In this document: positions 1,109-62,628 of the stretch, piece after piece
Layout of the letters: the number at the start of each line of letters is the position of its first letter
Position numbering within the stretch: the first letter of the stretch is position 1
Assembly: GCA_963844965.1 (NCBI GenBank)
Contig: CAWJQC010000007.1
Coordinates: forward strand, 160,001-224,000
DNA length: 64,000 nt
Reading direction: 5' to 3'
Origin: an uncultured bacterium
Lineage (GTDB): Bacteria; Patescibacteriota; Minisyncoccia; UBA6257; 2-01-FULL-56-20
Program-made: the position numbers and the translations under genes
Notes under the pieces: model-generated
The model's input: the letters and a program-made list of their open reading frames with translations, nothing else
The model's database searches: none
What the model was told of the DNA's origin: nothing

Positions 1109-1135
1109 CTGGCCGGTTTCCACGGATGTTTTCAA

Positions 1136-2519: not shown

Positions 2520-2613
2520 CCATTTCCCCTTTTGTTTAATCTACCAGATTATAAAACAAAATCAGCCAATCGCAAGGAGTAACAAAAACCCCGCCAGTGG
2601 GGATTTTTATTGC

Positions 2614-2633
2614 TCGTGGACCTGGGGGGAATC
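2614..2633. repeat. 20-nt direct repeat TCGTGGACCTGGGGGGAATC, a duplicate of the 3' end of tRNA-Ala(GGC); second copy at 2805-2824
   Basis: exact 20-mer present twice, 190 bp apart; candidate att-type duplication. Confidence 0.6.
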
Positions 2634-2772
2634 TCACGCGCTCGGTCGCCTGAGGCGACCTGTGCTTTTTAAAACCCTCGGTTTTTAATATTTTCCTACA
2701 CGGGGAACCGAGCGCGGTTCCCCGACCCCCTCCGCTGTTCGATTCCCTCAAAACCAGGTAACAAAAGAAAAA

Positions 2773-2800
2773 GGCGGCCGTCGCCGACCGCCTTTTTCTT
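2773..2800 (-). terminator. bidirectional rho-independent terminator (GGCGGCCGTCGCCGACCGCC plus T-run) just downstream of the tRNA-Ala gene
   Basis: GC-rich hairpin flanked by A/T runs on both strands. Confidence 0.5.
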
Positions 2801-2807
2801 TTGTTCG

Positions 2808-2878
2808 TGGACCTGGGGGGAATCGAACCCCCACCTCTTCCATGCCATGGAAGCGTTCTGCCACTATACTACAGGCCC
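2808..2878 (-). tRNA. tRNA-Ala (anticodon GGC)
   Basis: cloverleaf folded by hand: acceptor GGGCCTG/CAGGTCC with G3:U70, anticodon loop AUGGCAU, T-arm GGGGG-TTCGATT-CCCCC, discriminator A, no encoded CCA. Confidence 0.8.
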
Positions 2879-3244
2879 ATTGGCAGATTTTGATCTGTTA
2901 TTCTTGAACTCGGGAGAATGTATCGTGTCGTAGATGCTGCCGTTCGGATTGATTATTATCGCCTTTATAACGGTTTCTATTGTTGGGTTGTCTGTTATAG
3001 TTTTGCCGTCTTCATCTTCCTTGCAGATCGGGATTTTATCCATTTTCATTAGGTGGTGGGCGACGCCGTTCATTGAAATAATAAACTGCGTCGGCGTTTT
3101 TTCAATGCCGAATCTATATCCATCCTCTTTCAATTTCGCCGCCACCTTCTCCACGCGTCCATCAATCTCCCTCATCTTTTCCATTCTCTGTCTTTCTAGC
3201 TCTTTTCCTTGCTCGGCAGTTACATATCCGCCGTTTGTTTTCAT
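2864..3244 (-). CDS. hypothetical protein (126 aa)
   Basis: ORF only; the C-terminal codons overlap the 5' end of the tRNA-Ala gene, so the true stop and the gene's reality are uncertain. Confidence 0.35.
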   Translation of the reverse strand: MKTNGGYVTAEQGKELERQRMEKMREIDGRVEKVAAKLKEDGYRFGIEKTPTQFIISMNGVAHHLMKMDKIPICKEDEDGKTITDNPTIETVIKAIIINPNGSIYDTIHSPEFKNNRSKSANGPVV

Positions 3245-3258
3245 CGTCTTGCACTTAC

Positions 3259-3510
3259 TTATTTTACAGGCTGATTATCCGCGGAGGAAGATTTCTTGCT
3301 GAAAACGTAGAGATACAAAATCTCCAAAATGCCGACCGTGTTTACTACAAGCAAAACAACAAACCAAATTTTACTGCCCAAGTGTGCTGCTCTCCATAGG
3401 GCAAGGCCCTTCCACGCGAGCGACCAGATGACGAGGATGGCGAGGACGAATCCCGCGCCCGCGCTGAGCGCGCCGAAGCCGAACACGGCGCCCAACGAAT
3501 TACTCCACAT
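3259..3510 (-). CDS. small membrane protein (two predicted TM helices)
   Basis: hydrophobic 83-aa ORF. Confidence 0.4.
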   Translation of the reverse strand: MWSNSLGAVFGFGALSAGAGFVLAILVIWSLAWKGLALWRAAHLGSKIWFVVLLVVNTVGILEILYLYVFSKKSSSADNQPVK

Positions 3511-3615
3511 ATATTTGTTAATAATGTCCGATGTTTGCGACCTTTGCCTCTCAAGCCATAATCATTTATAGTTTATACGATTCGCCCCCGTAGTTCAACT
3601 TGTTTCGCATTGGTT

Positions 3616-3687
3616 CCCCTTGTAGCTCAACGGATAGAGCAGTCCCGTCCTAAGGGAAAGATGAGGGTTCAATTCCTTCCAAGGGGA
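3616..3687 (+). tRNA. tRNA-Arg (anticodon CCU), unusual C1-G72 start
   Basis: hand fold: acceptor CCCCTTG/CAAGGGG, D-stem GCTC/GAGC, anticodon stem GTCCC/GGGAA with loop GUCCUAA, T-arm GAGGG-TTCAATT-CCTTC, discriminator A. Confidence 0.55.
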
Positions 3688-3770
3688 CACGGAGTACCAG
3701 TTTCCATTTTGAAGAATCGTAGTTCGTCTTTCCCAGCGGAGCCGCCTTTTTGTTTTCGTGTTAAAATTTA

Positions 3771-3828
3771 CTTATGCCCGGTAGTAGAACTGTGATATCG
3801 GGCAATCAATAAAAATCGCAGTTCACTA
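3771..3828. mobile_element. miniature (~58 bp) copy of a MITE-like element: left TIR CCCGGTAGTAGAACTGTGATAT plus a degenerate right end ATCGCAGTTCACTATCGG
   Basis: matches the terminal inverted repeats of the 157-bp element at 16191-16347. Confidence 0.45.
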
Positions 3829-3835
3829 TCGGACT

Positions 3836-4327
3836 ATGCAGGAATATCTGGGCGAAGCCGTAATTTTGAACCGCGAGCCTGTGGGCGACCTTGACCTGCG
3901 CCTTTCTATTTTTACGAAGCGGTTCGGTAAGTTTGTGGCGAAGGCCAAGAGCGCGCGCAAGATAACTTCCAAGCTTGCCGGACACTTGCAGCCCGGAAAT
4001 CTTGTTGACGCAAGGATTGTTGAAAAGAATGGTCTGCAGATAGTTGATGTGCTGAAAAAACTGCGGCTGAGTATTGCTCCTGCCGATCTGCATCGCCTGA
4101 ATTTGATTCTCGCGGAAGCCGAGCCGGATTTGCGACTCTGGCGCGAGCTTGTAAGTGGCGAATTCGGTTGGCCGGAGGTGTTGAAAATTTTGGGGTGGGA
4201 TCCCAGCGTGGCGCGATGCGGCGCTTGCAATAGCGCGGAGAAGCTCGCTTTCAGCATTCCCGGGCAGGATTTTTTTTGCGGGAATTGCGTTTCAAAATTG
4301 GACCAGAATGAGGTAATATATATTTAA
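3836..4327 (+). CDS. recO: DNA repair protein RecO (short form)
   Basis: N-terminal OB-fold region typical of RecO and a C-terminal CxxC...CxxC zinc finger. Confidence 0.65.
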   Translation: MQEYLGEAVILNREPVGDLDLRLSIFTKRFGKFVAKAKSARKITSKLAGHLQPGNLVDARIVEKNGLQIVDVLKKLRLSIAPADLHRLNLILAEAEPDLRLWRELVSGEFGWPEVLKILGWDPSVARCGACNSAEKLAFSIPGQDFFCGNCVSKLDQNEVIYI

Positions 4328-4329
4328 TG

Positions 4330-4420
4330 TCTGTTGATTAACGAATTAACGGATTGCGTATTAACGGATTCGGTTTTTGATTCGTTAATTCGTTGATGCG
4401 TTAATAAATAATTTTTAACT
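4330..4420. repeat. palindromic TTAACG(G/A)ATT repeat array ending CGTTAATAAATAAT; same family at 20906-21012 and 46880-46960
   Basis: direct and inverted copies of ATTAACGGATT/AATCCGTTAAT read directly; shared terminal 14-mer. Confidence 0.6.
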
Positions 4421-4423
4421 CGT

Positions 4424-6252
4424 ATGTCACCGAGCAACAAGTACAACGAAAGTTATATTTCGCCTTGGGAGGGTGATAAAGACGCCATGGTGGGCAAGAG
4501 CGGAAGGTCTAAATCGGCGAAGCACCGCAACCGCGGCCCCATATTGATCGCTGTGGCGGCGCTTATCGCGGTAATAGCCGTCTTATTTTATTTCGCGTTT
4601 CTGCGGAAACCGGCGGGGCCGGATGTGGGCATGGAATTTCTGAATCCTGGAGCGATACTGGCCGGCGACGGGTTCACTCTCACAGTTTCGATTTCCAATT
4701 ATTCGGACATTGTTCTCCGGGACGCGAGGGTTTCGCTTGTTCTGCCCGACGGCGTTTCGTTTACGGAATCGCAGGCCGACCAGCGCGTTGATGAGAGAAC
4801 CATAGGCGATTTCGGGCCCGGGAGCGTCAATCAACAGTCCTTTAATTTGATAGTTACGAACGGCAGCAATGTATTGAAACATATCCAGGCTAAATTTGAC
4901 TACGCGACGGGCGGGAGCACAAGCGCCGAATTTGAGAGTGTCGGAGAATATGATCTCTCGGTTGGGCAACCGGCAATCGGTTTGAATCTGAGCGCGCCGC
5001 AGAGCATTTTCAACAGCCAGGATTTCACAGTCAAGGTTTCGTACATAAACAACACCAGCCACGATTTCAAAAATTTGCATTTAAACGTTGATTATCCGCC
5101 GATATTCGGATTCAAATCCAGCACGATGCAGCCCGAGTCCGGGAGCAATAATTCTTGGGATTTAGGGACGCTCGCTTCCGGCTCCAGCGGCGTTATATCC
5201 ATAACCGGCAGCGTTGTTGGGCCGGAAAAGTCGTTTTTCAACTTCGGCGCTTCTTTAACATCCGACCTTATGGGTAATACTTACACGATCAATAGCCAGA
5301 CGGCGTCCGTGGCCATTTCCGCGGCGCCGCTCGCGCTTCAAGTCACGCGCCGGAGCACGGCGGATAATGCACTGCATGCCGGTGACCCCGTTACTTACAA
5401 TCTTAATTACGTGAATAATTCCGATGTTACCATGCAGGACGTTACGATAAGCGCCAAACTTACCGGTGAAATGTTTGATTTCACGACGGTTGACACCAAA
5501 GCCTACTTTAATTCGCTGACCGATACGATTAATTGGTTCGCGGCGAACACTCCGGAGCTCCAGAGCATCGCTCCGGGACAGGGAGGGTCGGTTGCTTTCG
5601 CGATCAAAGTCAAAGATTCTTTTCCGATCCGGCTGATGAGCGACAAAAATTACACCTTGCGGCTGGACGCGCAGATTCATCCCCGACGGTTCCGGCAAAT
5701 ACGGCCGCGAACAAGACGGTTTCCATTGCCAGCATTGAAGACAAAGTCGCGGGAAAAATTGATCTGGCGGCGGAAGCGTATTGGCGCGACGCGCAGAGCG
5801 GGATTTTAAATCAAGGGCCTTACCCGCCGAGAGTGGATCAGCCGACGCAGTACACCATACACTGGCGGCTCACAAATTATTCCACAGACGTGGCAAATAT
5901 CACGGTTTCGGCGTATCTGCAGTCAGGCAGCCGGTTCACTGGAGTTGTGAGTTCCAATATCGCGAGTAGCACGCCGACGTACAATCCGGATTCCGGCCTG
6001 GTTACGTGGCAGGTCGGTTCTTTGCCGGCAACGAAAGGGATCACTGGAGCTCCGGCCGAAGCGGTTTTCCAGATAGAAAACACGCCGTCACTCACGCAGG
6101 TCAACCAAAACGTGTCGCTTCTGGGGGAAACGAAAGTTGAGTGGACGGATTCTTTCGTTGGAGCGGTGTACGACGCTACTGCTCCGCCGCTGGACACCTC
6201 CCTTCCGTATGATAAAACGATAACGGATACAGGCAGGACGGTGGAGAATTAG
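4424..6252 (+). CDS. large secreted or surface protein with DUF11-type conserved repeat domains; frame broken near 5683 (C4 run), joining ORFs 4424-5809 and 5533-6252
   Basis: N-terminal TM/signal anchor, repeated beta-rich modules rich in N/S/T; one extra C would join the two ORFs into a ~609-aa protein. Confidence 0.55.
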
Positions 6253-6310
6253 AAATTAGGAAGCAGAAAATAGAAAACAGGGATATGCCCAAAACAGATA
6301 AAGGCGATTA

Positions 6311-11467: not shown

Positions 11468-12395
11468 ATGGAAGCTGGGTTGCAAAAACTGTTTCGCTGC
11501 ATACTTCACGGGAGTTTTGGGAGGTATTTTGACGAGATAAAACGGGTTCGTCGCATTTTTGTTGCCGCCGGCATTGAAGTGCTCGCGCCGAGAGCCGAAG
11601 AGATCAAAAAGATCGAGAATGGTTTCGCGATTTTTGATGGCGACGGCGATGCGGATCCGCGTCTGATTGAACTTCGCTATTTACATAATCTTAAATGCCT
11701 TGGCGAGGACGGTTTCAGTTATTTTGTAAATCCCGAGGGATATATCGGCAAAAGCGCCTCTTATGAACTCGGCATTGCGCAAGTTTCAAACGTGAGATGT
11801 TTCTTTGTGGAAAAACTGGCCGATCATCCGGCGTATCTCCACGCGAACTCCATCTGGAAACCGGAATTGCTGGCTGAATTCATAAAAGAAAAAAAACGCT
11901 TACCTGAGCCGCAAATCAAGCCGAACGAGGTTAAGATACACAAATTATGGGAAGAGCTTATGGTACCCGGCTCGGTGGTTGCCGTCGGCGGCATTATTGA
12001 ATACGTGTCGGACAAGAAAGAAAAAGAAATTTTACTTGTGAAGACGCACAAGTGGGGCGGGCGGTACTCTATCGTCGGCGGGAGGGTGCGCAGGAATGAG
12101 CGACTTAATGATGCGTTAACCCGCGAGTATCAGAGAAGAAACTGGTTTAAAATCGTACATCGGCGAACACATATGCACCTTTGATCAGATAAAAAACTCC
12201 GGTTATTACTTGAGCGGCATTCAGCATGTTTTTGTGGATAAAATCGTGCGCGTGACAGATAAGCGTGTCCGTTTGAACGAGGAGGCGCAGGAATTTTTAT
12301 GGGTTCCGCCTAAGATTGCGCTCGGCGAATTAGACATAGAACCCAACGCGCGGCAAACCCTGAGCCTTTATTCAAAAATGACCGTTGTATCATAA
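11468..12395 (+). CDS. two-domain protein with an uncharacterised N-terminal domain and a C-terminal Nudix hydrolase domain; frameshift near 12128
   Basis: Nudix box GGRV...NERLNDALTRE / IREETGL is split across two frames (ORFs 11468-12184 and 12210-12395). Confidence 0.5.
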
Positions 12396-17926: not shown

Positions 17927-18157
17927 AAATCGAGATACTTTCTTAATTTGCGGTAGCCTGCTTGCCGGCATCGCCGTCTTTCTATGAGCATAAGGCGCTT
18001 GCTCTGAGAAGCTTGCGGAGGCGATAAAAGCTGGGTTTTTGCGCAGCAAAATTTTGTCGTCGAGCGGCAGCGAAAAACTTCCGCAGGGGAAGTTTTATCG
18101 CGGTTCTTGGAGCAAACGCCCGGAGCGGGGTTATCCACACCATCCCCACAGACGCCT

Positions 18158-18788: not shown

Positions 18789-19455
18789 ACACCCTACACA
18801 TTTTTTGAAACTAAAATGTGTAGGGCTCTTTCTCTCAGTCTCGGCAACCCCGACGTAAAGTCGGGGTTAAAGTCAGCATTGGGATGGTTGGCATTTCCGC
18901 CGCAAGGCGGAAAATTAAGAGCGAATGGTGGATGCCCTTGACATCAAAAGGCGACGAAGGACGCGGCGTAGCGGCGATACGCCTCGGGGAGGTGCGTAGC
19001 AACCTGTGATCCGGGGATTTCCGAATGGGGAAACCCAATTGAGCAAACCTCAATTTTTTTGCCGCAAGGCAAAAAGCAAACCCGCTGAAGTAAAACATTC
19101 CAGTAAGCGGAGGAATAGAGAACTAATGTTATTCCCTTAGTATCGGCGAGAGAAAAGGGAAGAGCCTAAACCTAAGTTTTCGCAAGAAAAGTTTGGTGTT
19201 ATAAGGTAAAAACACTTTGGATATAACGTTGAGCGTTATCCGCCAACGGCGGAGCGGCGACCAGCGTTATATCTAAAAAGGAGTTACAAATTGATTTGTT
19301 AGCCGAAGCCCACTGGAAAGGGGCGCCAAAGGGGGTGATAGCCCCGTAGGCGAAAACGAATCAACTTCTCGTTTTTATCCTTGAGTACTCTGAGGTAAAT
19401 TAGCTTCGGAGGAATTCGCCTGTACTATCAGGCAAGGCTAAATACTTTTGATGAT

Positions 19456-19492
<37 letters not shown>

Positions 19493-19687
19493 CAGGCCGG
19501 TGAGGCCGTTGAAATAGAACCTGAAACCATTCGTTTACAAGGAATTGAACCACGAACGTTCTGCCGCAAGGCGGGACGAGTGGGACAATGTGCCTATTGA
19601 AGAATGAGCCAACGACTTATTTTGCATTGCTCGTGTAAGCATCTATAAGATGCGTACGCACAGCGAAAGCGAGTCTTAATAGGGCGA

Positions 19688-19972
19688 AAACCATCTCAAA
19701 TTTTTGGACTGAAAAATAAAAACCGGTCAGTTTTTAGCTGCCGGTCTGCGAGATACCAATTCTTGTTCTAATTTTCTGACCTGAGCGTCCAGTTTTTCTT
19801 GAAGGCCACGATGCCTCAAGTATCTCCTGCCGCTTACGTGCGATCGATGTTTTTTCCTGGTCCAGATGGAATGTTGGGCCACGCAAACTCCTTTTGTCGG
19901 GCGACTGTAGATCTGGAAGGATTTTAGGATGAGCCGAATAGAAAGTCAACAGTCCAAAAATTTGAGATGGTT
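19688..19972 (+). other. 23S IVS-a (~285 nt) at the helix-25 position, flanked by a perfect 21-nt inverted repeat CCATCTCAAATTTTTGGACTG / CAGTCCAAAAATTTGAGATGG
   Basis: conserved 23S sequence resumes on both sides; long perfect stem typical of RNase III-processed IVS. Confidence 0.65.
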
Positions 19973-20479
19973 AGGCAGTGCAACATAGACCCGAAGCCAG
20001 ATGAGCTTGCCTTGGCCAGGGTGAAATCCGCCGAAAGGCGGATGGAGGCCCGAACTGGTGGGTTGTTCAAAACCTTCGGATGAGCTGAGGTAAGGAGTGA
20101 AAAGCTAATCGAATCTGGTAATAGCTGGTTCTCTCCGAAATAGTTTTACGACTAGCGGCGCAGAAAATTTCGCGGGGGTAGAGCACTGGATGATTCGTAA
20201 AGGCCGAAAGGCCGACGAATCAATCAAACTCCGAATACCGCGATTGGAACCTGCGCTAGTCAGACTGCGGGGGCTAAGCTCCGTGGTCGCGAGGGAAAAA
20301 GCCCAGATCGTCAGCTAAGGTCCCTAAATCCATGCTAAGTGTTAAAGGTAGTCTTCTGCCATAAACAGATAGGAGGTTGGCTTAGAGGTAGCCATCCTTT
20401 AAAGAGTGTGTAACAACTCACTATTCGACGGCAGGGGGCGCGAAAATGTACCGGGGCTAAGCATGGTACCGAAGCTACG

Positions 20480-20585
20480 AATTACCTTGTGCTCCGCACA
20501 AGAATTTTCAGGTAATAATTTTCAATTTTCAAATGGTTTGGAAATTGTAAATTGCAAAATTGGAAATTCTCGCGCGCAGCGCGAG
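20480..20585 (+). other. 23S IVS-b (~105 nt) at the helix-45 position; interior is related to IVS-d
   Basis: an insertion lies between GTACCGAAGCTACG and GTAGTGGTAGGAGAGCATTC; interior aattttcaaatggtttggaaattg is similar to 21275-21330. Confidence 0.6.
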
Positions 20586-20885
20586 GTAGTGGTAGGAGAG
20601 CATTCGTATTGCACTGAAGCTCGACCCGCGAGGGCGAGTGGAGCGGTACGAAGAGACAATGTTGGTATGAGTAACCACAATCCCAATGAGAAATTGGAAC
20701 CCCGAAAATCCAAGGTTTCCGTGGCACTGGCAATCAACCACGGGTTAGGCGGCCCTAAGCCGATCCCGAAAGGGGCAGGCGATGGACAGACGGTTAATAT
20801 TCCGTCCCTTCCCTATGGTTATCTGCCGCATGACGGAGGAAATAAGCTTGCGTGCCTTATTGGTTTGGCATGGTTTGCCTCAAAG

Positions 20886-21033
20886 CGTGTCTCACTGCGT
20901 TCGACACTATAGTTAAACAATTTTTCAGTTAACGAGTTGCGAGTTAACGAGTTGAAAACAAAAAACCCGTTAACACGTTAACTCTTTAACTCGTTAATAA
21001 TTAATTATTGGGTGGCGAGCGGAGCGAGGCACG
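20886..21033 (+). other. 23S IVS-c (148 nt) with terminal stem CGTGTCTCACTGCGTTCG / CGAGCGGAGCGAGGCACG; interior made of TTAACG-family repeats
   Basis: 18-bp terminal pairing with 2 mismatches; interior matches intergenic repeats at 4330-4420 and 46880-46960. Confidence 0.6.
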
Positions 21034-21238
21034 TTGGAGGCCGACCGAAGGTTCGGTTTTTACCGGGCCGACGCAGGCGAAGAGCCTTCCAAGAAAAGCG
21101 CGGCGGTCACGCCGTAGAGAATCCGTACCGGAAACCGACACAGGTGGATTGGGCGAGAAGCCCTAGGGGAACGAGTGATTTGCCTCTAAGGAACTCGGCA
21201 AACAAGCGGCCGTAAGTTAGCAATATGGCCTGCCCGAC

Positions 21239-21352
21239 CGTGCCTCACTGCGTTCGGCGCGGAATTTAAAATTTTACAATTTTTAATTTTCAAACTGTTT
21301 GCAAAATTGAAAATTATATATTGAAAATTCCGCACGAGCATAGCGAGGTGCG
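21239..21352 (+). other. 23S IVS-d (114 nt) with terminal stem CGTGCCTCACTGCGTTCG / CGAGCATAGCGAGGTGCG
   Basis: left terminus identical to IVS-c and IVS-g at 17/18 positions. Confidence 0.6.
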
Positions 21353-21479
21353 GTTGGGCCGCAGCGAAAGTCCCTTTGGCGACTGTTTACCAAAAACACA
21401 GCTCCCTGCGAACTCGCAAGAGGATGTATAGGGGGTGACGCCTGACCGATGCGAGAAGGTCAAGGCCGACGGTGCACGT

Positions 21480-21565
21480 AGCACATAGCATGTAACACAA
21501 AACAAGAAAAAATAAATAAAACCTGCTCCATGTTACATGTTGCGTGCTGCGTGTGCTGATTGGCT
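21480..21565 (+). other. 23S IVS-e: expanded helix insertion with inverted repeat GCACATAGCATGTAACAC / CATGTTACATGTTGCGTGC
   Basis: extra ~70 nt relative to the conserved flanks AGAAGGTCAAGG ... GGTAACTATAACCG. Confidence 0.45.
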
Positions 21566-21887
21566 CAAGCCCTCGTCAATGTCAGCGGTAACTATAACCG
21601 TTCTAAGGTAGCGCAATTCCTTTTCGGGTAAGTTCCGAAGCGCACGAAAGGCGTAACGATCAAAGGACTGTCTCAGAGGCAAGCTCGGTGAAAATGCGAT
21701 TCCCGTGAAGACGCGGGATACCTGCAGCGGGACGAAAAGACCCCGGAAGCTTTACTGCAGCTTGGTATTGTTTCTAGGGCTTTGATGCGTAGCGTAGTGG
21801 GGAGCCTTTGAAGCTCCGCTCTCGGGCGGGGTGGAGGCGACAATGAAACACCCATCTTCAAAGTTTTAGCGACTAACCAGTTGGGGA

Positions 21888-21932
21888 CCCTACACTCTCT
21901 AGATAAATTTTGGAAATCCAGAGAGTGTAGGG
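21888..21932 (+). other. 23S IVS-f: hairpin insertion CCCTACACTCTCT-AGATAAATTTTGGAAATCC-AGAGAGTGTAGGG
   Basis: perfect 13-bp stem; its CCCTACAC...GTGTAGGG ends are shared with the hairpin at 18792-18825. Confidence 0.5.
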
Positions 21933-22297
21933 AAACCCAACCGGGACAGTGCTTGGTAGGCAGTTTAAATGGGGCGTTTTCCTCCAAAAAAGTAACGGAG
22001 GAGTTTATTAAGGTCGGCTTAGCCCGGATGGAAATCGGGCAGGACGTGCAAACGCAAAAGCCGGCTTAACTGCAAGGCCTACAAGCCGCGCAGATGCGAA
22101 AGCAGAAGTTAGTGACCCGACCACACATTATAGAATGGTGGGAGACACCGGACAAAAGCTACTCCGGGGATAACAGGCTGGTGAAGTCCGAGAGTCCCTA
22201 TCGACGACTTCGCTCGGCACCTCGATGTCGGCTCGGCACAGCGCGGGGGTGAAGAAGCTCCCAAGCGTTTGGCTGTTCGCCAATTAAAGTGCCACGT

Positions 22298-22338
<41 letters not shown>

Positions 22339-22456
22339 TGCTGCAGGCGTTTACACTTGAGGGGAGTTGGCCCTAGTACGAGAGGACTGGGCTGAACTGA
22401 CCTCTGGTCTACCGGCTTTGGTACCAACTGAAGCGCCGGGTAGCTATGTCGGGAAG

Positions 22457-22490
<34 letters not shown>

Positions 22491-22510
22491 ACCCCAAGAT
22501 TAGGTGTAGT

Positions 22511-22648
22511 CGTGCCTCACTATCGTTCGGCACGGTATCGATGCAAATATACTAATCGTACTAATGATGCGAATTTGATTCCATTGGTATCATTAGCATT
22601 CACTTGCATATTGGTATCGATACTCGTGATGAGCGGCAGCGAGGCACG
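22511..22648 (+). other. 23S IVS-g (138 nt) near the 3' end (helix-98 region) with terminal stem CGTGCCTCACTATCGTTCG / GAGCGGCAGCGAGGCACG
   Basis: same terminal stem family as IVS-c and IVS-d; interior is palindromic. Confidence 0.6.
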
Positions 22649-22962
22649 ACAAGGTTTCGTTGAAGACTACAACGCATATAGGCTCTAGGTGTAAGATCCG
22701 TAAGGATTTCAGCCAAGGAGTACTAATAACCTGTTTTGCCAACCATCCCAATGCTGACTTGTGTGCTGTTTTGGAGAACCGCGGTTCGATTCGCTCCAGC
22801 GGCGAATCGCCCGCTGCTTCTCGCTCCGACGGCTCGCTTCAGGCGAGACCAAGCCCGTCGGAGCTCCGAAAGCTTCTCCAAAACAGCACACTGCGTCCGT
22901 TCAGAAAGTTTAGGTGTTTTCGCGAAGCGAAAACAGCAATTTAAAGATTAAAACGACTCTTT

Positions 22963-56649: not shown

Positions 56650-57205
56650 AGCCCCGGCCTTTAGGCCGAGGATAAGGCGACCCCGTAGCCCCGAGCGAAG
56701 CGAGGGGCGGAGGGCTTATTTGCCTGTTCCCACTGGTTTCTGCCGGTGCGATAATGAAGATAATGCCCTCTGGATTCTGGCCAAGCAACCACAGCTATAC
56801 GCGATGTTTGTACCACGTTGTTTTCTGCCCAAAGTACCGCCGCTCGATACTGCGAGGGGACATGGTCGGGCGACTCAAGACATTGTTCTTTCAAGCCGCC
56901 AAGATGAATAAATGGTTCATCCATGAAGCGCAGATAATGCCCGACCATGTCCATCTATTGCTTCAAATTCCTGCTACCCTGACGGTTGCCAAAGCGGTGT
57001 TTTATCTCAAAGGCGGTACGTCCAGGGCTGTCAGAAAAGAATTTCCCGAGCTGGAAGAATTCCTCTGGGGAGACAGCTTGTGGCAGGATGGTTACTTTGC
57101 CGAAACCGTTGGCCGTCAAAACGAAAAAGCGATGAGAGAATATATCAGAAACCAGTGGGAACAGGAGCCGAACACAAGCCGCGGGCTTTAGCCCGCGGTG
57201 ATTGA
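56650..57205 (+). mobile_element. IS200/IS605-family element (tnpA only) with subterminal hairpins CGGCCTTTAGGCCG (left) and GCCGCGGGCTTTAGCCCGCGG (right)
   Basis: Y1 HUH transposase gene flanked by imperfect palindromes with a shared TTTAG loop. Confidence 0.65.
56754..57191 (+). CDS. tnpA: IS200/IS605 family transposase TnpA (HUH Y1 transposase)
   Basis: YHVVFCPKYRR and HVHLLL (HUH) motifs, ~145 aa. Confidence 0.85.
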   Translation: MKIMPSGFWPSNHSYTRCLYHVVFCPKYRRSILRGDMVGRLKTLFFQAAKMNKWFIHEAQIMPDHVHLLLQIPATLTVAKAVFYLKGGTSRAVRKEFPELEEFLWGDSLWQDGYFAETVGRQNEKAMREYIRNQWEQEPNTSRGL

Positions 57206-58323: not shown

Positions 58324-59112
58324 ATGAATGAAGTCGCCAAACTTATTGAACTTTTAAACAATAAAGCGAAGCTCACCGCTATGCTCGCTCCGTCGTTTCC
58401 GGTTATGTATGAGTATCCGCAAATCATCGGCAGGCTGAGGCAGTTGGGTTTTTCGCATGTTGTTGAAGTCGCGGCGGGCGCTAAAAGAACAAACGAGGCG
58501 GTCGTGAAGTTGCTGCGGGATGACCCTAAGTCGCGATTCATCACGAGTCCATGTCCGAGTTTTGTGCGTCTCGTGAGGACCAAACATCCGCAGCTTCTGC
58601 CGTACCTTGCGTTCAAGGCCGATTCGCCGATGGTCGCGACCGCGCGTATCGTGAAAGAAAAATTTCCCGACTGCCAGCCGGTTTTTATCGGTCCCTGCAT
58701 CGCCAAGAAACTTGAGGCCTCGGAGGATTATCCGGAACTCAATATTTTAGTCATAACCTACAGAGAGCTTGAGGTGGTTTTCAATACGTTCCATGTGGGG
58801 AATGCGGTTGCTCGGGTAGATGGTGGGTTTGACATCGCGGAACAGGGGACGCGCATTTATCCGACTGACGGCGGGCTCACGGAATCGAGCGGTGCGAGGA
58901 GTATTCTCGAGGACGAGGAAATAAGAATCGTTTCCGGATGGAAGAATTGCGAAGCGGCTCTCGCAGAATTTGAAAAAAATCCAAAAATTCGGCTGCTTGA
59001 TATTTTATTCTGCGAAGGCGGGTGCATCATGGGGCCGGGAATAGTAAGCGCCTTGCCGCTTGAGGAGCGCAAAAAGAAAATTATGGAGTTTTCGGCGAGA
59101 AGAGATTCATGA
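58324..59112 (+). CDS. [FeFe]-hydrogenase large-subunit C-terminal-domain-like protein (degenerate H-cluster motifs)
   Basis: TSPCPSF, GPCIAKK, EGGCIMGPG correspond to H-cluster motifs L1-L3. Confidence 0.55.
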   Translation: MNEVAKLIELLNNKAKLTAMLAPSFPVMYEYPQIIGRLRQLGFSHVVEVAAGAKRTNEAVVKLLRDDPKSRFITSPCPSFVRLVRTKHPQLLPYLAFKADSPMVATARIVKEKFPDCQPVFIGPCIAKKLEASEDYPELNILVITYRELEVVFNTFHVGNAVARVDGGFDIAEQGTRIYPTDGGLTESSGARSILEDEEIRIVSGWKNCEAALAEFEKNPKIRLLDILFCEGGCIMGPGIVSALPLEERKKKIMEFSARRDS

Positions 59113-59152
59113 TTGGAAAAATTTGCGGAAAAGCGGGAGAATGGGGATATTA

Positions 59153-59869
59153 ATGAAAATAAAAAAACCAATCAAGATTACACCCCAACGTTCCTCGACA
59201 GAACTGGACTACCACGCCTTACTCGCAAAATACCCCTGGATGGCTAAGCGAGGACAAAATTGTATCGTAAGCCCAGATAGTGATGGTCTGCTTTGCGGTC
59301 TCCTTATGTCGTACTATCTAGGATGGCGGATTTGCGGATTTTATGACGGGAAAGTTCTCGTTCTCGAAGATGGTTGCAATCCTCAAGAAAGTGTTTTTCT
59401 CGACATGGAAATATTCCGGCCGAATATCCGCAGCGTTGGACAACATATGGTCATGTATGACAAGGCGGACCTACCACCAAACTGGCAAAATTTCGACAAT
59501 TGTATTGCTGCAAATAATCTAAGGAATTACGACTTTAAAAATGATTTCAAGCTCAAATATCCGCTTGGAACAGTTCATCTCCTGCTTGCTATTTTAGGAC
59601 AGAGCAACACCATCCCTATCACCAAAAATGGAGTGAGCCCGTTATTATATACCGACGGAACTTTTAAGAATCAATTTAACTATCCAGAAAATTGCTTGAG
59701 TTGGTTGGATTTTTTGGGAGCAAATCAGGCAAATAGTCCACTTCAAAAAATCTTTCTAGACAGACATTATTCAACTTATGAATTAATGGTTGAGCTGAAA
59801 GATTTATTTTTGAAATTCAATGTCATTGGAGGAGGAAAACGTGGCGGTGATAAAATCAAGAATCTCTGA
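59153..59869 (+). CDS. hypothetical protein (238 aa)
   Basis: ORF; start chosen at MKIKKPIK with GGGGA RBS. Confidence 0.45.
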   Translation: MKIKKPIKITPQRSSTELDYHALLAKYPWMAKRGQNCIVSPDSDGLLCGLLMSYYLGWRICGFYDGKVLVLEDGCNPQESVFLDMEIFRPNIRSVGQHMVMYDKADLPPNWQNFDNCIAANNLRNYDFKNDFKLKYPLGTVHLLLAILGQSNTIPITKNGVSPLLYTDGTFKNQFNYPENCLSWLDFLGANQANSPLQKIFLDRHYSTYELMVELKDLFLKFNVIGGGKRGGDKIKNL

Positions 59870-60155
59870 TTCGCGAGGAAATATTGTTAACATCGACTCT
59901 CGTACCAACCTCCTCAAGACAGAAACTAGGACTCAAGCAGAAAATCTTTTGGAAATGTTGGCAGACAAAACTAAGTGGACATTTACGTCCGCTCATTGGC
60001 CGTGGGGTCCATATCAAACCACTCGATTTAGAAAAGGCAGCGTAAAACCTGGGAAGGCTCGTTACAACGCGCTTCTTGCTCAAAATCCCATATCTCTCGC
60101 GATTATCAGCCGAGAGAGTATTGAATATACGATAGACGAAAACGGAATGTTCTAG
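59841..60155 (+). CDS. hypothetical protein (~104 aa), GTG start with a GGAGGAGG RBS; its stop shares TCTAGA with the convergent gene
   Basis: ORF plus a strong RBS. Confidence 0.4.
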   Translation: MAVIKSRISDSRGNIVNIDSRTNLLKTETRTQAENLLEMLADKTKWTFTSAHWPWGPYQTTRFRKGSVKPGKARYNALLAQNPISLAIISRESIEYTIDENGMF

Positions 60156-61609
60156 AGCAATCTGTTTTGTGACGCCAAAACGCATTCTTCCTTCATGCGT
60201 TTTTCTGCAATCGCACAGTACTCGGGCGCAATATCAATTCCGATATACTTGTGCCCCAAATTCTTTGCCGCAACGGTAGTAGTGCCACTTCCAACAAAAG
60301 GATCTAAGACGACCCCATTTTTGGGACAGAAGCATTGTATGAAATCGTACGGCAATTGATTTGGAAATGTTGCCGGATGTTGATGTTTTAGTCGGCTGCC
60401 GTCACCGGCCGTGAGATATTCCCAAATCGTCCCCCGGCACTTCATGGGATTTATCTTGATGGGTCGGGTGTTTATCCGTGTGCCATTTGTCAGGCGAGTG
60501 CCTCCGCCTGTCAATGTTTTCCCGCCCCACTTAGACGGTATTTTGAGTGGTTCTTTATTGAAATGCTGTGGCCTTTCTCCTTTTAGGAAAATTGGCATAT
60601 ATTCGTGGTCGACACGGAAGCGTTTATTCCACCAAGCGCCCTCCGCGCCGTACTTTCTATAGATGGTGGTCTCAAAAAGTTTAAATCCTACATTATCACA
60701 CCAATCTATTATTGTTTTGAAAGAGGTCAGCGATTTCGCGAAATTTTTTGTTTGATCTTGGATGACCATTACGGCTACTCCGCCGTCTTTCAGCGCTCTG
60801 TATATTTCTCTTCCTGTCTCGTGGAGATTAAATTTCGGCCTTCCTTTGTAGTCGCGTACGGCATCGTACGGAGGCGAAGTGACTACAATATCCACCGAAT
60901 TGGGGGGAAACTCTTTCATTATATCTACCGCATCGCCGCAAATGATTTTATTTAGCGGCAATTCTTCATATTTTTTAACTTCTTTGTGCTCGGGAAGTTG
61001 TATTGTTGACGCTCCTTCTTCCCGGATAACATCAAGCACTATTCCTTGGATTGAAACATCTCGTCCGTTTCGGAAGATAAGCGGCTCCATATTTTTATTG
61101 GCCGGTTGCAAACGAATATGTCCTCGTTCTTTATAAAATTTCTTAAGTGTTGCTTCGTGATTATCAATAAGCGCCACCACTTTTTGTCCGTTCTCGGCGA
61201 TTTTCTGCTGTTTTACCAAAACGATATCTCCATCGTTGATATTCTCATCAACCATGCTATTACCGACAACCTTTAGTGCGTAAATCTGGCCAGAACCGGG
61301 TAATCTACTTTGAGGAACAGCGATGGTCTCTCTGTCTTCTATGGCCTCAATCGGTTGGCCTGCGGCTATGGTTCCCAGCAGAGAAATACTTATCATCTTT
61401 TCTGATTTTGAAATTTCTATCCCTCGCGGCTGACTCGTCGCCTTTGTCAATAATCCTTTCTCTTTCAACGATTCAATATGCTGGTGAATAGTTGAGACCG
61501 AACTTAACCGGAAATGCTTTTTAATTTCCTCAAGCGATGGAGCGAACCCCCTTTTCTTGGTAAAACTTTTTATAAAATCCAAAATTTGTTTTTGGCGTTT
61601 GGTTAGCAT
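60152..61609 (-). CDS. fusion of a full-length LexA-like repressor (HTH plus S24 peptidase) with a beta-class N4/N6 DNA methyltransferase
   Basis: N-terminal 205 aa align to LexA (cleavage site AAG, catalytic GNSM Ser and K in ATLKKF); the C-terminal ~280 aa carry motif IV TSPPY before motif I DPFVGSGTT; one continuous 485-codon ORF; TATAAT 6 nt upstream of the ATG. Confidence 0.7.
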   Translation of the reverse strand: MLTKRQKQILDFIKSFTKKRGFAPSLEEIKKHFRLSSVSTIHQHIESLKEKGLLTKATSQPRGIEISKSEKMISISLLGTIAAGQPIEAIEDRETIAVPQSRLPGSGQIYALKVVGNSMVDENINDGDIVLVKQQKIAENGQKVVALIDNHEATLKKFYKERGHIRLQPANKNMEPLIFRNGRDVSIQGIVLDVIREEGASTIQLPEHKEVKKYEELPLNKIICGDAVDIMKEFPPNSVDIVVTSPPYDAVRDYKGRPKFNLHETGREIYRALKDGGVAVMVIQDQTKNFAKSLTSFKTIIDWCDNVGFKLFETTIYRKYGAEGAWWNKRFRVDHEYMPIFLKGERPQHFNKEPLKIPSKWGGKTLTGGGTRLTNGTRINTRPIKINPMKCRGTIWEYLTAGDGSRLKHQHPATFPNQLPYDFIQCFCPKNGVVLDPFVGSGTTTVAAKNLGHKYIGIDIAPEYCAIAEKRMKEECVLASQNRLL

Positions 61610-61749
61610 AGTTTGATTATACCAGCATCCCCAATCTTTTGCCTGTGGATAACTTTCGGTTTATTTTCGGTATGGTTTATGTTATAATGTAATCAACAAC
61701 AAAAGGCGTAAGGTACCAAGAAAATAGAGCAAAAATTTAGTTTTTAAAC

Positions 61750-62226
61750 ATGTGGCAATTTACCGAACAATATAAAAGGGTTGAAAGGTGGCACGCTAGA
61801 CTAAAAGCAATCTGTCGGAAAGTTCCAAAAGATATTGGAGACGATGAAGACATTCAAGGCAGAGATGACATTTTGGCGTTTTTTCAAAATTGTTACCATC
61901 TGAAAGATTGGGTTGAGAATGATGGTTCATGCCAAATTGCCGACAAGAAAAATGTAGTCGAAAATTTCATTAAAAATTCAGAATTTTTAAAGGTGTGCAA
62001 AGATGTTTGCAATGCGTCTAAGCACTTAGAGGTGGGACATCAAAGAATAGATCCGAGCGAGATTGTTAATTATGAGTTTTTTATATCAGGACCAAGTTTT
62101 TCTAACGGTGTTGTTACGAAACGCAATTTTAAAATTAGAGAACAGTATGAGGCGTTAGATCTCGCAGATAAATGTATGGGTGAGTGGCACGACTTTTTTA
62201 ATAAACAAGGAATGTCTTGGTCATGA
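61750..62226 (+). CDS. hypothetical protein (158 aa)
   Basis: ORF only. Confidence 0.4.
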   Translation: MWQFTEQYKRVERWHARLKAICRKVPKDIGDDEDIQGRDDILAFFQNCYHLKDWVENDGSCQIADKKNVVENFIKNSEFLKVCKDVCNASKHLEVGHQRIDPSEIVNYEFFISGPSFSNGVVTKRNFKIREQYEALDLADKCMGEWHDFFNKQGMSWS

Positions 62227-62331
62227 TTGCCTACCCCATAATCCGAAAATCCCACGAATCCTGCGAAAAAGCGAAAGAATTATTAGAAGAAGCCAAACGA
62301 AAGGTCGAGGAAATGATAGAAAAGAAATAAA

Positions 62332-62628
62332 ATGCCCAAATTTAGTAGGCTCAAAAAATTTACGAAAACGAACATTGAGAAAATACCTAAAAATAAATCA
62401 ATAGTATATAAGCTTACAAATACTGCTGGCAAAAACTTATATACGGGTATTGCTGGACGTGGCAGAACCGTTAAGCGCCTGCTCGAACACAAAAAACTTA
62501 AGAAGGACGAGATAAAGGGGGCGTCTCGTTTTAAGATCGCTCAAGTATCTACCAAAAAGCGAGCGGCTCAGATTGAAAAGCAAATTATAAAAAGGGAAAA
62601 ACCAGAGTTTAACATCCAGCATAAGTAA
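62332..62628 (+). CDS. stand-alone GIY-YIG nuclease domain protein (homing-endonuclease-like catalytic domain, 98 aa)
   Basis: SIVYKLTNTAGKNLYTGIAGRGRTVKRLLEH matches the GIY...YIG...R...E pattern. Confidence 0.6.
   Translation: MPKFSRLKKFTKTNIEKIPKNKSIVYKLTNTAGKNLYTGIAGRGRTVKRLLEHKKLKKDEIKGASRFKIAQVSTKKRAAQIEKQIIKREKPEFNIQHK

Follow-up and report, generated by a model that had tools for sequence, protein, structure and literature searches.

A 3.5-kb block of low GC content (59.1-62.65 kb; 0.35-0.47, compared with about 0.50-0.55 on both sides) stands out within the window, the whole 64-kb stretch of DNA that we analysed. Its central gene (60152..61609, minus strand) is an uninterrupted open reading frame of 485 aa with three domains: LexA_DNA_bind (PF01726, aa 2-63, 63.1 bits against a cut-off of 23.7), Peptidase_S24 (PF00717, aa 77-191, 99 bits) and the DNA methyltransferase (MTase) domain N6_N4_Mtase (PF01555, aa 239-470, 128.7 bits, with the model covered over its full length, 1-221 of 221). 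The N-terminal half also scores well above the cut-off of the NCBIfam lexA equivalog (TIGR00498, aa 2-197, 194.5 bits against 110.95), and its best sequence match in the PDB is the full-length LexA of Thermotoga (3k2z, E 2e-36).

The DNA-binding winged HTH domain (aa 1-63; 61421..61609, minus strand) contains the recognition helix S39-T-I-H-Q43-H, and is the only domain in which the AF2 model of the fusion reaches a pLDDT of ~85. The S24 autopeptidase and dimerisation domain (aa 77-197; 61019..61381, minus strand) contains the scissile bond Ala83-Gly84 (nt 61358-61363) and the catalytic dyad of Ser118 (nt 61256-61258) and Lys156 (nt 61142-61144). The Ala-Gly site, the serine and the lysine are invariant in all 57 distinct fusions compared, which otherwise diverge to ~50% identity.

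A linker of ~21 aa, modelled by AF2 with low confidence, fills the space between the Pfam boundaries of the S24 and MTase domains (60956..61018, minus strand), and it is at this point, at query residues ~205-220, that homologs consisting of the MTase alone start. The MTase domain itself (60155..60955, minus strand) carries both the catalytic SPPY and the AdoMet FxGxG motifs expected of the DNA MTase of a Type II restriction-modification (R-M) system. Motif IV (SPPY, aa 245-248, nt 60866-60877) lies N-terminal to motif I (FVGSGTT, aa 438-444, nt 60278-60298), the circularly permuted order of the beta class. PADLOC matches (oMTase, E 5e-43; MTase_II, E 1e-42) and PDB relatives (TTHA0409 and N4C MTases) place the domain among DNA MTases, and the SPPY motif makes m4C its likely product. 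The reading frame, the Pfam and TIGR00498 matches and the motif order therefore bear out the central claim of the sequence-only reading, that a complete LexA, to all appearances able to cleave itself, is fused in frame to a beta-class MTase. Continuity across the junction, on which that claim hung, is seen in over 120 independent clusters of proteins ~484 aa long, mostly from Patescibacteria, that share the same three domains in identical order at 70-82% identity. On this comparative evidence, the fusion is not an assembly artefact.

The end of the fusion gene overlaps that of a convergent gene in CTAG (60152-60155), inside the TCTAGA noted earlier. The region beyond it (59153-60155) had been read as two convergent hypothetical genes. 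These are the halves of a single 324-aa gene (59141..60155, plus strand) that is intact in relatives; in the window, one extra base near 59861 shifts the frame and splits it into 59141/59153-59869 and 59820-60155, both halves being 78% identical to the homolog at locus L001. This partner adjoins the MTase in ~55 loci, including loci in archaea and Bacteroidota that have no LexA. The linkage is tight, convergent or tandem with ends overlapping by 4 nt, and holds across domains of life. The partner diverges faster (33-86% identity, against 63-86% for the MTase) and is occasionally the only gene of the pair to decay. In about half of the related cassettes, a controller-like HTH_3 gene lies directly upstream of the nuclease gene and convergent with the MTase gene, an arrangement also known from C-protein Type II systems; the window has no such gene.

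Sister cassettes bear on the role of the partner. In some, its slot is occupied by a PADLOC REase_II/Endonuclease_7 His-Me nuclease (E 5.5e-47), in others by a protein with a PD-ExK-like motif, and sister cassettes with other MTases also carry a conserved, C-protein-like HTH_3 gene. The earlier statement that no obvious restriction endonuclease is present is probably wrong, given a constant MTase partner whose slot holds Type II endonucleases elsewhere, and we consider the partner a likely endonuclease. It is rather unlikely that MTase and partner instead form another kind of two-gene module, devoted to modification-linked repair or nucleotide processing rather than R-M. The partner matches no restriction endonuclease model and belongs to no known family of restriction endonucleases, a fold hint points to RecJ/NrnA-type exonucleases and phosphodiesterases and not to known restriction endonuclease folds, and site-avoidance analysis yielded no target site. 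Neither HMM nor profile comparison detects similarity to the DHH/RecJ phosphoesterase superfamily, and a Foldseek search with the partner returned nothing significant; we know of no DHH-fold restriction endonuclease. Against such a module stand the genetic signature of R-M (linkage, 4-nt overlaps, cross-domain spread, faster divergence of R, HTH_3 companions and R-only decay) and the bona fide endonucleases found in the same slot in sister cassettes.

Upstream of the fusion gene lies a predicted operator for the LexA module, the direct repeat TTTCGGT-TTAT-TTTCGGT, whose period is 11 bp (61654..61671, plus strand). This is the only exact site in the 64-kb window. The same element lies upstream of ~55 fusion genes; it occurs once per locus, at LexA-linked promoters only, and is missing from loci with stand-alone MTases. 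A residue of the recognition helix tracks the repeat in 56 of the 56 loci with an identifiable repeat (Q with CGGT; F, Y or H with [G/T]AT; E with CGGG), a co-variation that, being drawn from related sequences, represents few independent events. One nucleotide ahead of the operator is the invariant box TGTGGATAA(C) (61644..61652, plus strand), separated from it by one C at 61653; read on the opposite strand, the box gives the DnaA-box consensus TTATCCACA. This DnaA-box-like TGTGGATAAC adjoins the operator across the fusion loci and is also found at promoters of divergent LexA types.

Two putative extended -10 elements can be read from the sequence on either side of the operator. That of the fusion gene, TGgTATAAT (61616..61624, minus strand; hexamer 61616-61621), is followed by CAAACT and the ATG at 61609. 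With the start codon only 6 nt after the -10, a spacing that recurs in 28 of 52 relatives, the transcript is probably leaderless. At the level of the family, the predicted operator sits at the fusion gene's own promoter, overlapping or abutting the -10 in 42 of 52 loci. The window is an exception, in that the operator-promoter unit is inverted and the operator falls at roughly -38 to -55 relative to the MTase promoter, upstream of the core promoter and without overlap, so autorepression of the fusion gene may here be weak or indirect. The operator instead covers the -35 region of the divergent promoter (TGtTATAAT, 61680..61688, plus strand) that faces the other two genes of the island; in loci L045 and L035, an equivalent unit drives the fusion gene. 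The earlier suggestions of autorepression and of damage control fit both the conserved operator at fusion promoters and the invariant cleavage site and dyad.

The first gene faced by the operator-bearing promoter (61750..62226, plus strand) encodes an ORFan-like accessory protein of 158 aa with only four homologs, one of which sits in a lexA-led Type I/IIG R-M operon. A nuclease fold had been proposed as worth looking for in this protein; no family match was found in Pfam, NCBIfam or PADLOC. The second (62332..62628, plus strand) encodes a stand-alone GIY-YIG domain of 98 aa, an identification that passes the Pfam threshold narrowly (PF01541, aa 23-91, 26.1 bits against 22.6). It lies beside a fusion gene at one other locus only (L027), and its membership in the system is doubtful. 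Neither gene is a conserved part of the system, though both share the low-GC island with the fusion and the operator-bearing promoter of the window points towards them.

The LexA-MTase architecture extends well beyond close relatives of the window's fusion. A further ~40 clusters (at 50% identity) with fusion architecture were found among the top 150 representatives, and all 18 of the long representatives tested are DNA MTases. The LexA module is joined to N6_N4, D12 (Dam-like), gamma-class N6_Mtase/Eco57I/TaqI_C and C5 MTases, and the architecture is also present in Omnitrophota and Auribacterota. Some loci keep lexA and the MTase as separate genes (L057, L085), one has an unfused lexA together with a DpnI-family endonuclease in an operon headed by the LexA module (L092), and two encode fusions with the DNA-binding domain but no S24 domain and with the same operator (L055, L074). 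The fusion is neither a one-off nor the host SOS system's switch for methylation throughout the genome; it belongs to a large family of R-M cassettes that have been shuffled horizontally and in which the LexA module is joined to four or more classes of MTase. That no LexA-MTase fusion had been described agrees with the literature that we searched, which contains none, and with a 2025 review of R-M systems in which LexA is absent. LexA-fused MTases would constitute a widespread and apparently undescribed route linking a bacterial immune system to a DNA-damage signal.

It is quite improbable that the fusion is a housekeeping SOS repressor with an orphan MTase attached, that is, the cell's only LexA, governing a genomic SOS regulon and setting damage-switched epigenetic marks unrelated to restriction. 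The main suggestion of the sequence-only reading, a methylation switch under damage or SOS control, falls under this explanation. Such a role would suit an N-terminal half that scores as a LexA equivalog, the sharing of the direct-repeat operator type with the stand-alone LexAs of the clade, and an MTase that is effectively orphan because its R-like partner is broken. Moreover, no other lexA is encoded within the 64 kb; a motif search of the same window found no recA. The distribution of the fusion is nonetheless patchy and its modules are shuffled (L045 has a LexA of 79% and an MTase of 39% identity, L006 a LexA of 64% and an MTase of 82%), the architecture recurs in Omnitrophota and Auribacterota, and one contig carries two fusions. 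Endonuclease and controller-like genes are constant companions, the sole operator in 64 kb is the cassette's own, and the whole lies in a low-GC island.

We therefore favour, with moderate confidence, the view that the locus is a Type II R-M cassette whose R gene has decayed here and whose M protein is a LexA-type regulator of the cassette control region. The low-GC block would have been acquired horizontally by this Patescibacteria (CPR) bacterium. An N-terminal LexA dimer is predicted to bind TTTCGGT-N4-TTTCGGT (61654-61671) in the control region; in most relatives, where the operator lies over the -10 of the M gene, binding would bring about autorepression. Strict conservation of the Ala-Gly bond and of the Ser/Lys dyad leads us to expect self-cleavage with RecA-ssDNA, by which the M subunit is probably inactivated as a regulator. 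RecA-ssDNA filaments arising from self-restriction, repair synthesis or phage attack would thus trigger self-cleavage of the module, releasing the DNA-binding domain, derepressing the cassette and raising the supply of MTase. We infer this direction of the physiological effect; damage could instead lower methylation. Damage would thereby set off a protective response in a Type II system, akin to restriction alleviation. In the window, where the frameshift inactivates the partner, a LexA-controlled orphan MTase would remain.

The same cleavage might serve the opposite end. The cleaved MTase would be degraded and methylation would drop, leaving the partner to kill the cell in a damage-triggered suicide, an abortive infection or post-segregational killing. 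Strict conservation of the cleavage machinery is compatible with such an outcome, and cleavage would leave an N-terminal fragment with ...IAA as its last residues, similar to the terminus that ClpX recognises in cleaved E. coli LexA; E. coli LexA fragments are degraded by proteases of the Lon/ClpXP type. In the DpnI-family operon headed by the LexA module, damage would induce the nuclease, not a protector. We nevertheless regard this outcome as improbable: cleavage of an autorepressor would also derepress new synthesis of full-length M, the instability of the S24-MTase fragment is an assumption, and the window's nuclease candidate has already been inactivated. It is also conceivable, though very improbable, that the LexA module is a scaffold for DNA binding and dimerisation only, giving an SsoII-like autorepressor that dimerises a beta-class MTase and whose capacity for self-cleavage is physiologically unused. 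Several characterised beta-class MTases are dimers, and the fusions that have lost S24 but keep the same operator indicate that regulation does not require this domain. Unless proteolysis is under selection, however, it is difficult to account for cleavage residues that are invariant in 57 of 57 fusions.

Autorepression through an N-terminal HTH is an established mode of regulation for R-M MTases (PMC3874152; PMC12707154). M.SsoII, M.Ecl18kI, M.EcoRII, M.ScrFIA and M.MspI resemble the fusion in that an N-terminal DNA-binding domain is joined to the MTase and has its operator at the M promoter, a layout seen here at family level (42/52 loci); in these systems, binding leads to autorepression and coordinates the R-M genes. 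The fusions L055 and L074 are functionally equal to them in design. By this analogy, the fusion would be a new variant of the SsoII-type regulatory MTases. The simple HTH and C5 MTase of SsoII and Ecl18kI are replaced here by LexA_DNA_bind, Peptidase_S24 and N6_N4_Mtase, and the regulatory domains have no sequence relationship to the SsoII-type HTH; with both regulatory and MTase families different, the likeness is analogous and does not reflect a shared family. In contrast to the SsoII type, which is confined to C5 MTases, the regulator here is a complete LexA with winged HTH, S24 peptidase and intact catalytic residues, the operator is a direct repeat of 11-bp period, the MTases are of the beta, alpha, gamma and C5 classes, and a RecA/DNA-damage input is a potential feature of the LexA fusions only.

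The SOS repressor LexA (TIGR00498) and the LexA-like S24 repressors of mobile elements, lambda CI and SetR, match the fusion in the order of their domains, in the Ala-Gly site and the Ser/Lys dyad, and in having an operator at the promoter of their own gene; LexA boxes in direct repeat, likewise spaced by 11 bp (GTTC-N7-GTTC), are known from Alphaproteobacteria (PMC8565304). Unlike these repressors, the fusion carries an enzyme on the same polypeptide, resides in shuffled R-M cassettes and has an operator adjoining the invariant TGTGGATAAC box. In the 64-kb window the single operator is at the cassette, with no sign of control over DNA-repair genes. Type I restriction alleviation guards the chromosome against the cell's own enzyme when DNA damage or repair gives rise to sites that lack the modification (PMC12707154). 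For EcoKI this occurs by ClpXP proteolysis of the nuclease subunit HsdR, whereas the route proposed here would be derepression of a Type II MTase via LexA self-cleavage, making the analogy a functional one only. If the proposal is true, a self-cleaving M would do for a Type II system what restriction alleviation does for Type I, or else provide a damage-induced boost to defence.

More tentatively, and with rather less than even confidence, the observations can be combined into a broader proposal. LexA-fused or LexA-adjacent MTases and nucleases would form an unrecognised class of damage-sensing R-M systems, widespread among Patescibacteria and neighbouring phyla. RecA-stimulated self-cleavage of M would re-tune the balance of methylation and restriction, the LexA modules would carry a readable helix-operator code, and the window's partner would represent a new restriction endonuclease of DHH/RecJ fold. 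As set out for this class, the helix-operator code also pairs K with CACC.

The gene at 60152-61609 on the minus strand encodes, in one uninterrupted 485-codon frame, a LexA repressor joined to a DNA methyltransferase (MTase). The cassette context found in related genomes changes how this fusion is read: it is probably the LexA-regulated modification (M) subunit of a mobile restriction-modification (R-M) cassette, the nuclease gene of which is decayed here. Comparison of the loci shows a Type II R-M-like cassette in which M carries a complete LexA, a matching predicted operator lies at the promoter, and the candidate restriction (R) gene is frameshifted here. An earlier sequence-only reading had proposed an SOS-controlled methylation switch without a nuclease; the LexA-MTase half of that proposal stands, and the nuclease-less half is probably wrong.

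Pfam models place LexA_DNA_bind at residues 2-63 of the fusion, Peptidase_S24 at 77-191 and a full-length N6_N4_Mtase at 239-470. The assignment of the N-terminal domain to LexA holds against profile models, the LexA_DNA_bind match being joined by 194.5 bits to the NCBIfam lexA equivalog (cut-off 110.95), and full-length Thermotoga LexA is the closest relative of solved structure for the N-terminal half. The autocleavage site and Ser/Lys dyad first seen by that reading are present as the Ala83-Gly84 bond, Ser118 and Lys156, and the MTase is indeed of the circularly permuted beta class, with SPPY preceding FVGSGTT. Furthermore, the three domains and the length recur at 70-82% identity in at least 120 protein clusters of independent assemblies, for the most part Patescibacteria/Parcubacteria MAGs, so the fusion is more general than had been supposed. 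An assembly or frameshift artefact is ruled out by the continuous ORF in more than 120 independent clusters. Their annotation goes no further than 'transcriptional repressor LexA' or 'site-specific DNA-methyltransferase', and the former label would mislead SOS-regulon reconstructions in CPR genomes. An AF2 model of the whole fusion, made for the linker, was uninformative outside the winged HTH (pLDDT 59), as the alignment was shallow and low in diversity.

The Ala-Gly site, nucleophilic Ser and general-base Lys are unchanged in 57/57 distinct fusions whose LexA modules diverge to ~50% identity, which argues that self-cleavage of these proteins is functional. An unlikely alternative is a purely structural role for S24, for instance in keeping the fusion dimeric, to be weighed against the invariance of all three catalytic features. 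Two loci (L055 and L074) have an MTase joined to the LexA DNA-binding domain only, S24 having been lost by a clean deletion; these variants show that S24 is an added input and not a requirement for regulation.

The association of LexA with MTases is broad. An exhaustive search of 1.8 billion representatives returned 663 at E < 1e-30, and in about 40 of the best 150 the LexA module occupies residues 1 to ~200 of a protein of 418-890 aa. All 18 of the long representatives scanned are DNA MTases, drawn from four families: N6_N4_Mtase, Dam-like D12, N6_Mtase/Eco57I/TaqI_C and C5 DNA_methylase. Unfused arrangements also occur, with a LexA-like gene directly upstream of an MTase of the window's type (L057), lexA 1 nt ahead of a Type I/IIG MTase operon (L085), and, in L092 and L093, a LexA 70% identical to the window module encoded 14 nt upstream of a DpnI-family endonuclease. 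Such arrangements form a Rosetta-stone pattern that functionally connects LexA-type repressors with restriction-modification genes. This large family comprises dozens of clusters at 50% identity and four MTase classes, and is found mainly in CPR bacteria, which are poorly understood. On one contig two LexA-MTase cassettes occur together: in an Omnitrophota locus (L044) two different fusion cassettes lie within 6 kb (564-2429 and 4992-6299), the first fusion, of 621 aa, being followed by a 249-aa putative endonuclease. A phage origin of the fusion was rejected, as no phage record with the fused architecture was found.

Several further arrangements were seen among the relatives. The L085 operon (433-5817) encodes a 218-aa LexA 27% identical to the module, an HSDR_N_2/N6_Mtase/Eco57I Type I/IIG-like MTase, a DUF3800 protein, a protein homologous to the window's 158-aa product, and HsdS; the operon's promoter contains a TTATCCACA box and, between -35 and -10, a palindromic, C-box-like CGACTATTTAGTCG. 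The DpnI-family enzyme of the lexA-dpnI operons (L092 1125-2551, L093 743-2169) is methylation-dependent, and its promoter follows the same box-operator-promoter design as the fusions (GTTCGGTAAATGTTCGGT), making it a candidate damage-inducible Type IIM enzyme. Three MTases 65-69% identical to that of the window (P0241, P0243 and P0244) have N-terminal extensions of 100-210 aa in place of LexA, with no Pfam annotation, which may be fused regulators of other kinds.

The two convergent hypothetical genes reported beside the MTase gene turn out to be halves of a single gene (59141-60155, plus strand), which is intact at 324 aa in a related locus (L001). The intact protein is 78% identical to the first ORF over residues 2-227 and to the second over residues 225-324, and DNA alignment locates one extra base in the window near 59861, outside any homopolymer run. 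None of the 634 members of this partner family is annotated; they are typically 324 aa long, and the copy in this genome is the only truncated one. AlphaFold modelled a close, intact homolog with confidence (pLDDT 94, pTM 0.92), and the residues invariant in the family alignment (SPDSDG, D75, Q88-H89 and TDG159) resemble DHH motifs I-IV. The DHH fold assignment stays tentative, because a Foldseek search against the PDB gave no significant match and neither a profile hmmsearch of PDB sequences nor hhalign against the DHHA2 protein of locus L004 gave any match. Pfam, NCBIfam and PADLOC models likewise did not match the partner. With motif likeness on one side and negative structure, profile and model searches on the other, we regard it as a candidate nuclease of unusual, possibly DHH-like, fold, and as such a candidate new fold among restriction enzymes.

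From genetic context only, we infer that the partner is a putative restriction enzyme; a partner of some other function is the alternative, which the empty searches would suit. The context comes from a scan of species-representative genomes, in which 247 genomes had relatives and 80 loci were kept, with tblastn of the four components against all loci for linkage, divergence and shuffling. The partner immediately adjoins the MTase, mostly convergently and sometimes in tandem, in essentially all loci with an MTase at least 63% identical, including those in which the MTase stands alone, with no LexA, in Bacteroidales, Ignavibacteria, WOR-3, Kapaibacterium, Ratteibacteria, and Pace- and Woesearchaeota. 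MTase and partner are thus a mobile pair, and LexA is an add-on. The partner is the faster to diverge (33-86% identity, versus 63-86% for the MTase); R genes usually diverge faster than M genes. The LexA module, at 59-79% identity, is joined elsewhere to quite different MTases (30-42% identity). In these sister cassettes the nuclease slot is the convergent downstream gene, with a conserved HTH_3 gene before it, and is filled either by an Endonuclease_7/His-Me-finger protein, which PADLOC calls a Type II restriction enzyme (E 5.5e-47), or by a protein with a PD-ExK-like motif.

About half of the loci also have a small HTH_3 gene immediately upstream of the partner gene. This controller-like gene is 73-84% identical across cassettes with unrelated M and R genes (L046-L053, L060, L065, L078 and L080, where it lies downstream of the nuclease slot), and so behaves as a portable regulatory part that, like the LexA module, recombines with different enzyme pairs. 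At L004 (7707-11737) a fusion gene without partner stands beside an HTH gene, a weakly RT-like gene and a cassette of Dcm-type MTase, unknown gene and Vsr, a setting that resembles a defence island.

Upstream of the fusion genes lies a conserved composite element consisting of TGTGGATAAC followed by a direct repeat, xTTCnnn-N4-xTTCnnn, with 7-nt units at 11-bp spacing. Each locus has a single copy, invariably placed immediately upstream of the LexA-linked gene, regardless of the type of MTase. Loci of stand-alone MTases lack the element, and no operator was found upstream of partner or HTH_3 genes. A forward-oriented repeat is present in 52 loci; in 42 of these it overlaps or adjoins the -10 hexamer, and in 28 the start codon follows within 10 nt of the -10, a gap that suggests leaderless fusion transcripts. 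Three variable bases change together in both units and track one recognition-helix residue (Q43 in the window): Q pairs with CGGT (13 loci), F, Y or H with [G/T]AT (37) and E with CGGG (6). This co-variation holds in 56/56 loci with an identifiable repeat, representing few independent events since the sequences are related. The unfused LexA at the lexA-dpnI promoter pairs helix STVHQH with GTTCGGT, and a more distant unfused LexA with K at this position pairs with TTTCACC/TCTCACC. Direct-repeat LexA boxes of 11-bp period, GTTC-N7-GTTC, are known from Alphaproteobacteria (PMC8565304). From its conservation at LexA-linked promoters and its co-variation with the recognition helix, we conclude that the repeat is the predicted operator of the LexA module, and such natural helix-operator pairs are useful for understanding how LexA specificity evolves.

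The TGTGGATAAC box, identical to the DnaA-box consensus, is retained where divergent LexA types have other operators at their promoters, and it therefore probably binds a conserved factor other than LexA. A role as MTase target or C-protein site is unlikely, as the box is invariant across different MTases and present without an HTH_3 gene. The 9-mer is ~8-fold commoner in all loci than permuted controls, with 68% of copies outside long ORFs and most of those at LexA-linked promoters. The exact consensus (TTATCCACA / TGTGGATAA) occurs three times in the 64-kb window against 0.24 expected, each time between genes (61644-61652, 18131-18139 and 12233-12241); one copy lies ~20-25 nt upstream of the TTGACA -35 of the TTGACA-N17-TATAAT promoter of the tRNA-23S-5S operon.

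The window's composite element, at 61644-61671, is its sole such site in 64 kb. That the fusion is simply the housekeeping LexA, as its equivalog score might suggest, is an unlikely alternative to be set beside this single site in the cassette's own control region; a motif scan of the 64-kb window did not find recA, uvrA or a second lexA. The element is inverted relative to most relatives, a layout common to the window, L078/L080 and L010. Here the unit CTGTGGATAAC-TTTCGGTTTATTTTCGGT-ATGGTTTA-TGTTATAAT faces the 158-aa gene (61750-62226, plus strand), and the operator therefore covers the -35 region of that gene's putative promoter. The fusion gene's own putative TGgTATAAT ends 6 nt before the ATG, leaving the operator at about -38 to -55 of the fusion promoter. 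The 158-aa gene and the GIY-YIG gene (62332-62628, plus strand) were considered and rejected as conserved components of the system, neither being kept beside fusion genes: the 158-aa protein has only four homologs, and the GIY-YIG gene recurs beside a fusion gene in L027 only.

R-M systems must balance a toxic nuclease against a protective methylase, and are known to do so through C proteins, promoter methylation, antisense RNA and MTases that bear a simple HTH at the N-terminus. We propose that the fusion would dimerise via S24, bind the direct repeat and repress transcription from the control region, which in most cassettes means the M gene itself; in the window, the divergent promoter would be repressed and possibly the M promoter too. 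RecA filaments formed after DNA damage, including self-restriction and phage attack, would stimulate A83-G84 cleavage and free the DNA-binding domain. Repression would then be lost, more MTase made and unmodified sites protected, a Type II analogue of restriction alleviation. Suicide through loss of the MTase is a less likely alternative outcome. To our knowledge, a damage response among R-M systems has so far been known for Type I only, by the quite different ClpXP route.

MTases whose N-terminal HTH represses their own promoter are established for SsoII, Ecl18kI, EcoRII and ScrFI (PMC3874152; PMC12707154), and damage-induced alleviation of Type I enzymes acts via ClpXP (PMC12707154). The fusion resembles these SsoII-type regulatory MTases but differs in that its methylase would contain a self-cleaving sensor of damage; with a LexA repressor as part of the methylase, the immune system's own subunit would sense the RecA/DNA-damage signal directly. 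That putative sensor, a helix-operator code that can be read, and what may be a new REase fold are the novel elements. LexA-fused MTases are not mentioned in these two R-M reviews, and the word LexA has zero occurrences in the 2025 R-M review. The impression that no LexA-MTase fusion had been described agrees with the literature searched, in which we found no account of one, a 2017 paper on the Patescibacteria SOS network lying outside that scope.

The M and R genes, together with the 158-aa and GIY-YIG genes, lie within a low-GC island at 59.1-62.65 kb (GC 0.35-0.47, versus ~0.50-0.55 in the flanks). An IS200-type Y1 transposase gene (56754-57191) is found 2 kb away from the cassette. The gene adjoining the cassette (58324-59112) codes for no more than the C-terminal domain (262 aa) of the large subunit of an Fe-only hydrogenase, and the low-GC block begins directly past this fragment gene. 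Palindrome avoidance, compared between 733 kb of loci with this MTase and 164 kb with other MTases, identified no specifically depleted site as the MTase target. TCGA is strongly avoided across the whole 64-kb window (79 observed versus 283 expected, O/E 0.28), which suggests past or present TaqI-like restriction pressure in the genome; the avoidance is unrelated to the cassette, since genomes sharing its MTase do not share it. Finally, the window is CPR-like, given its tRNA-23S-5S operon without an adjacent 16S, typical of CPR, and a 23S rRNA gene (18905-22743) that must carry insertions, as it spans 3.8 kb against a 2.9-kb model. An ORF inside this 23S gene (20406-20912) encodes 168 aa with no Pfam match.
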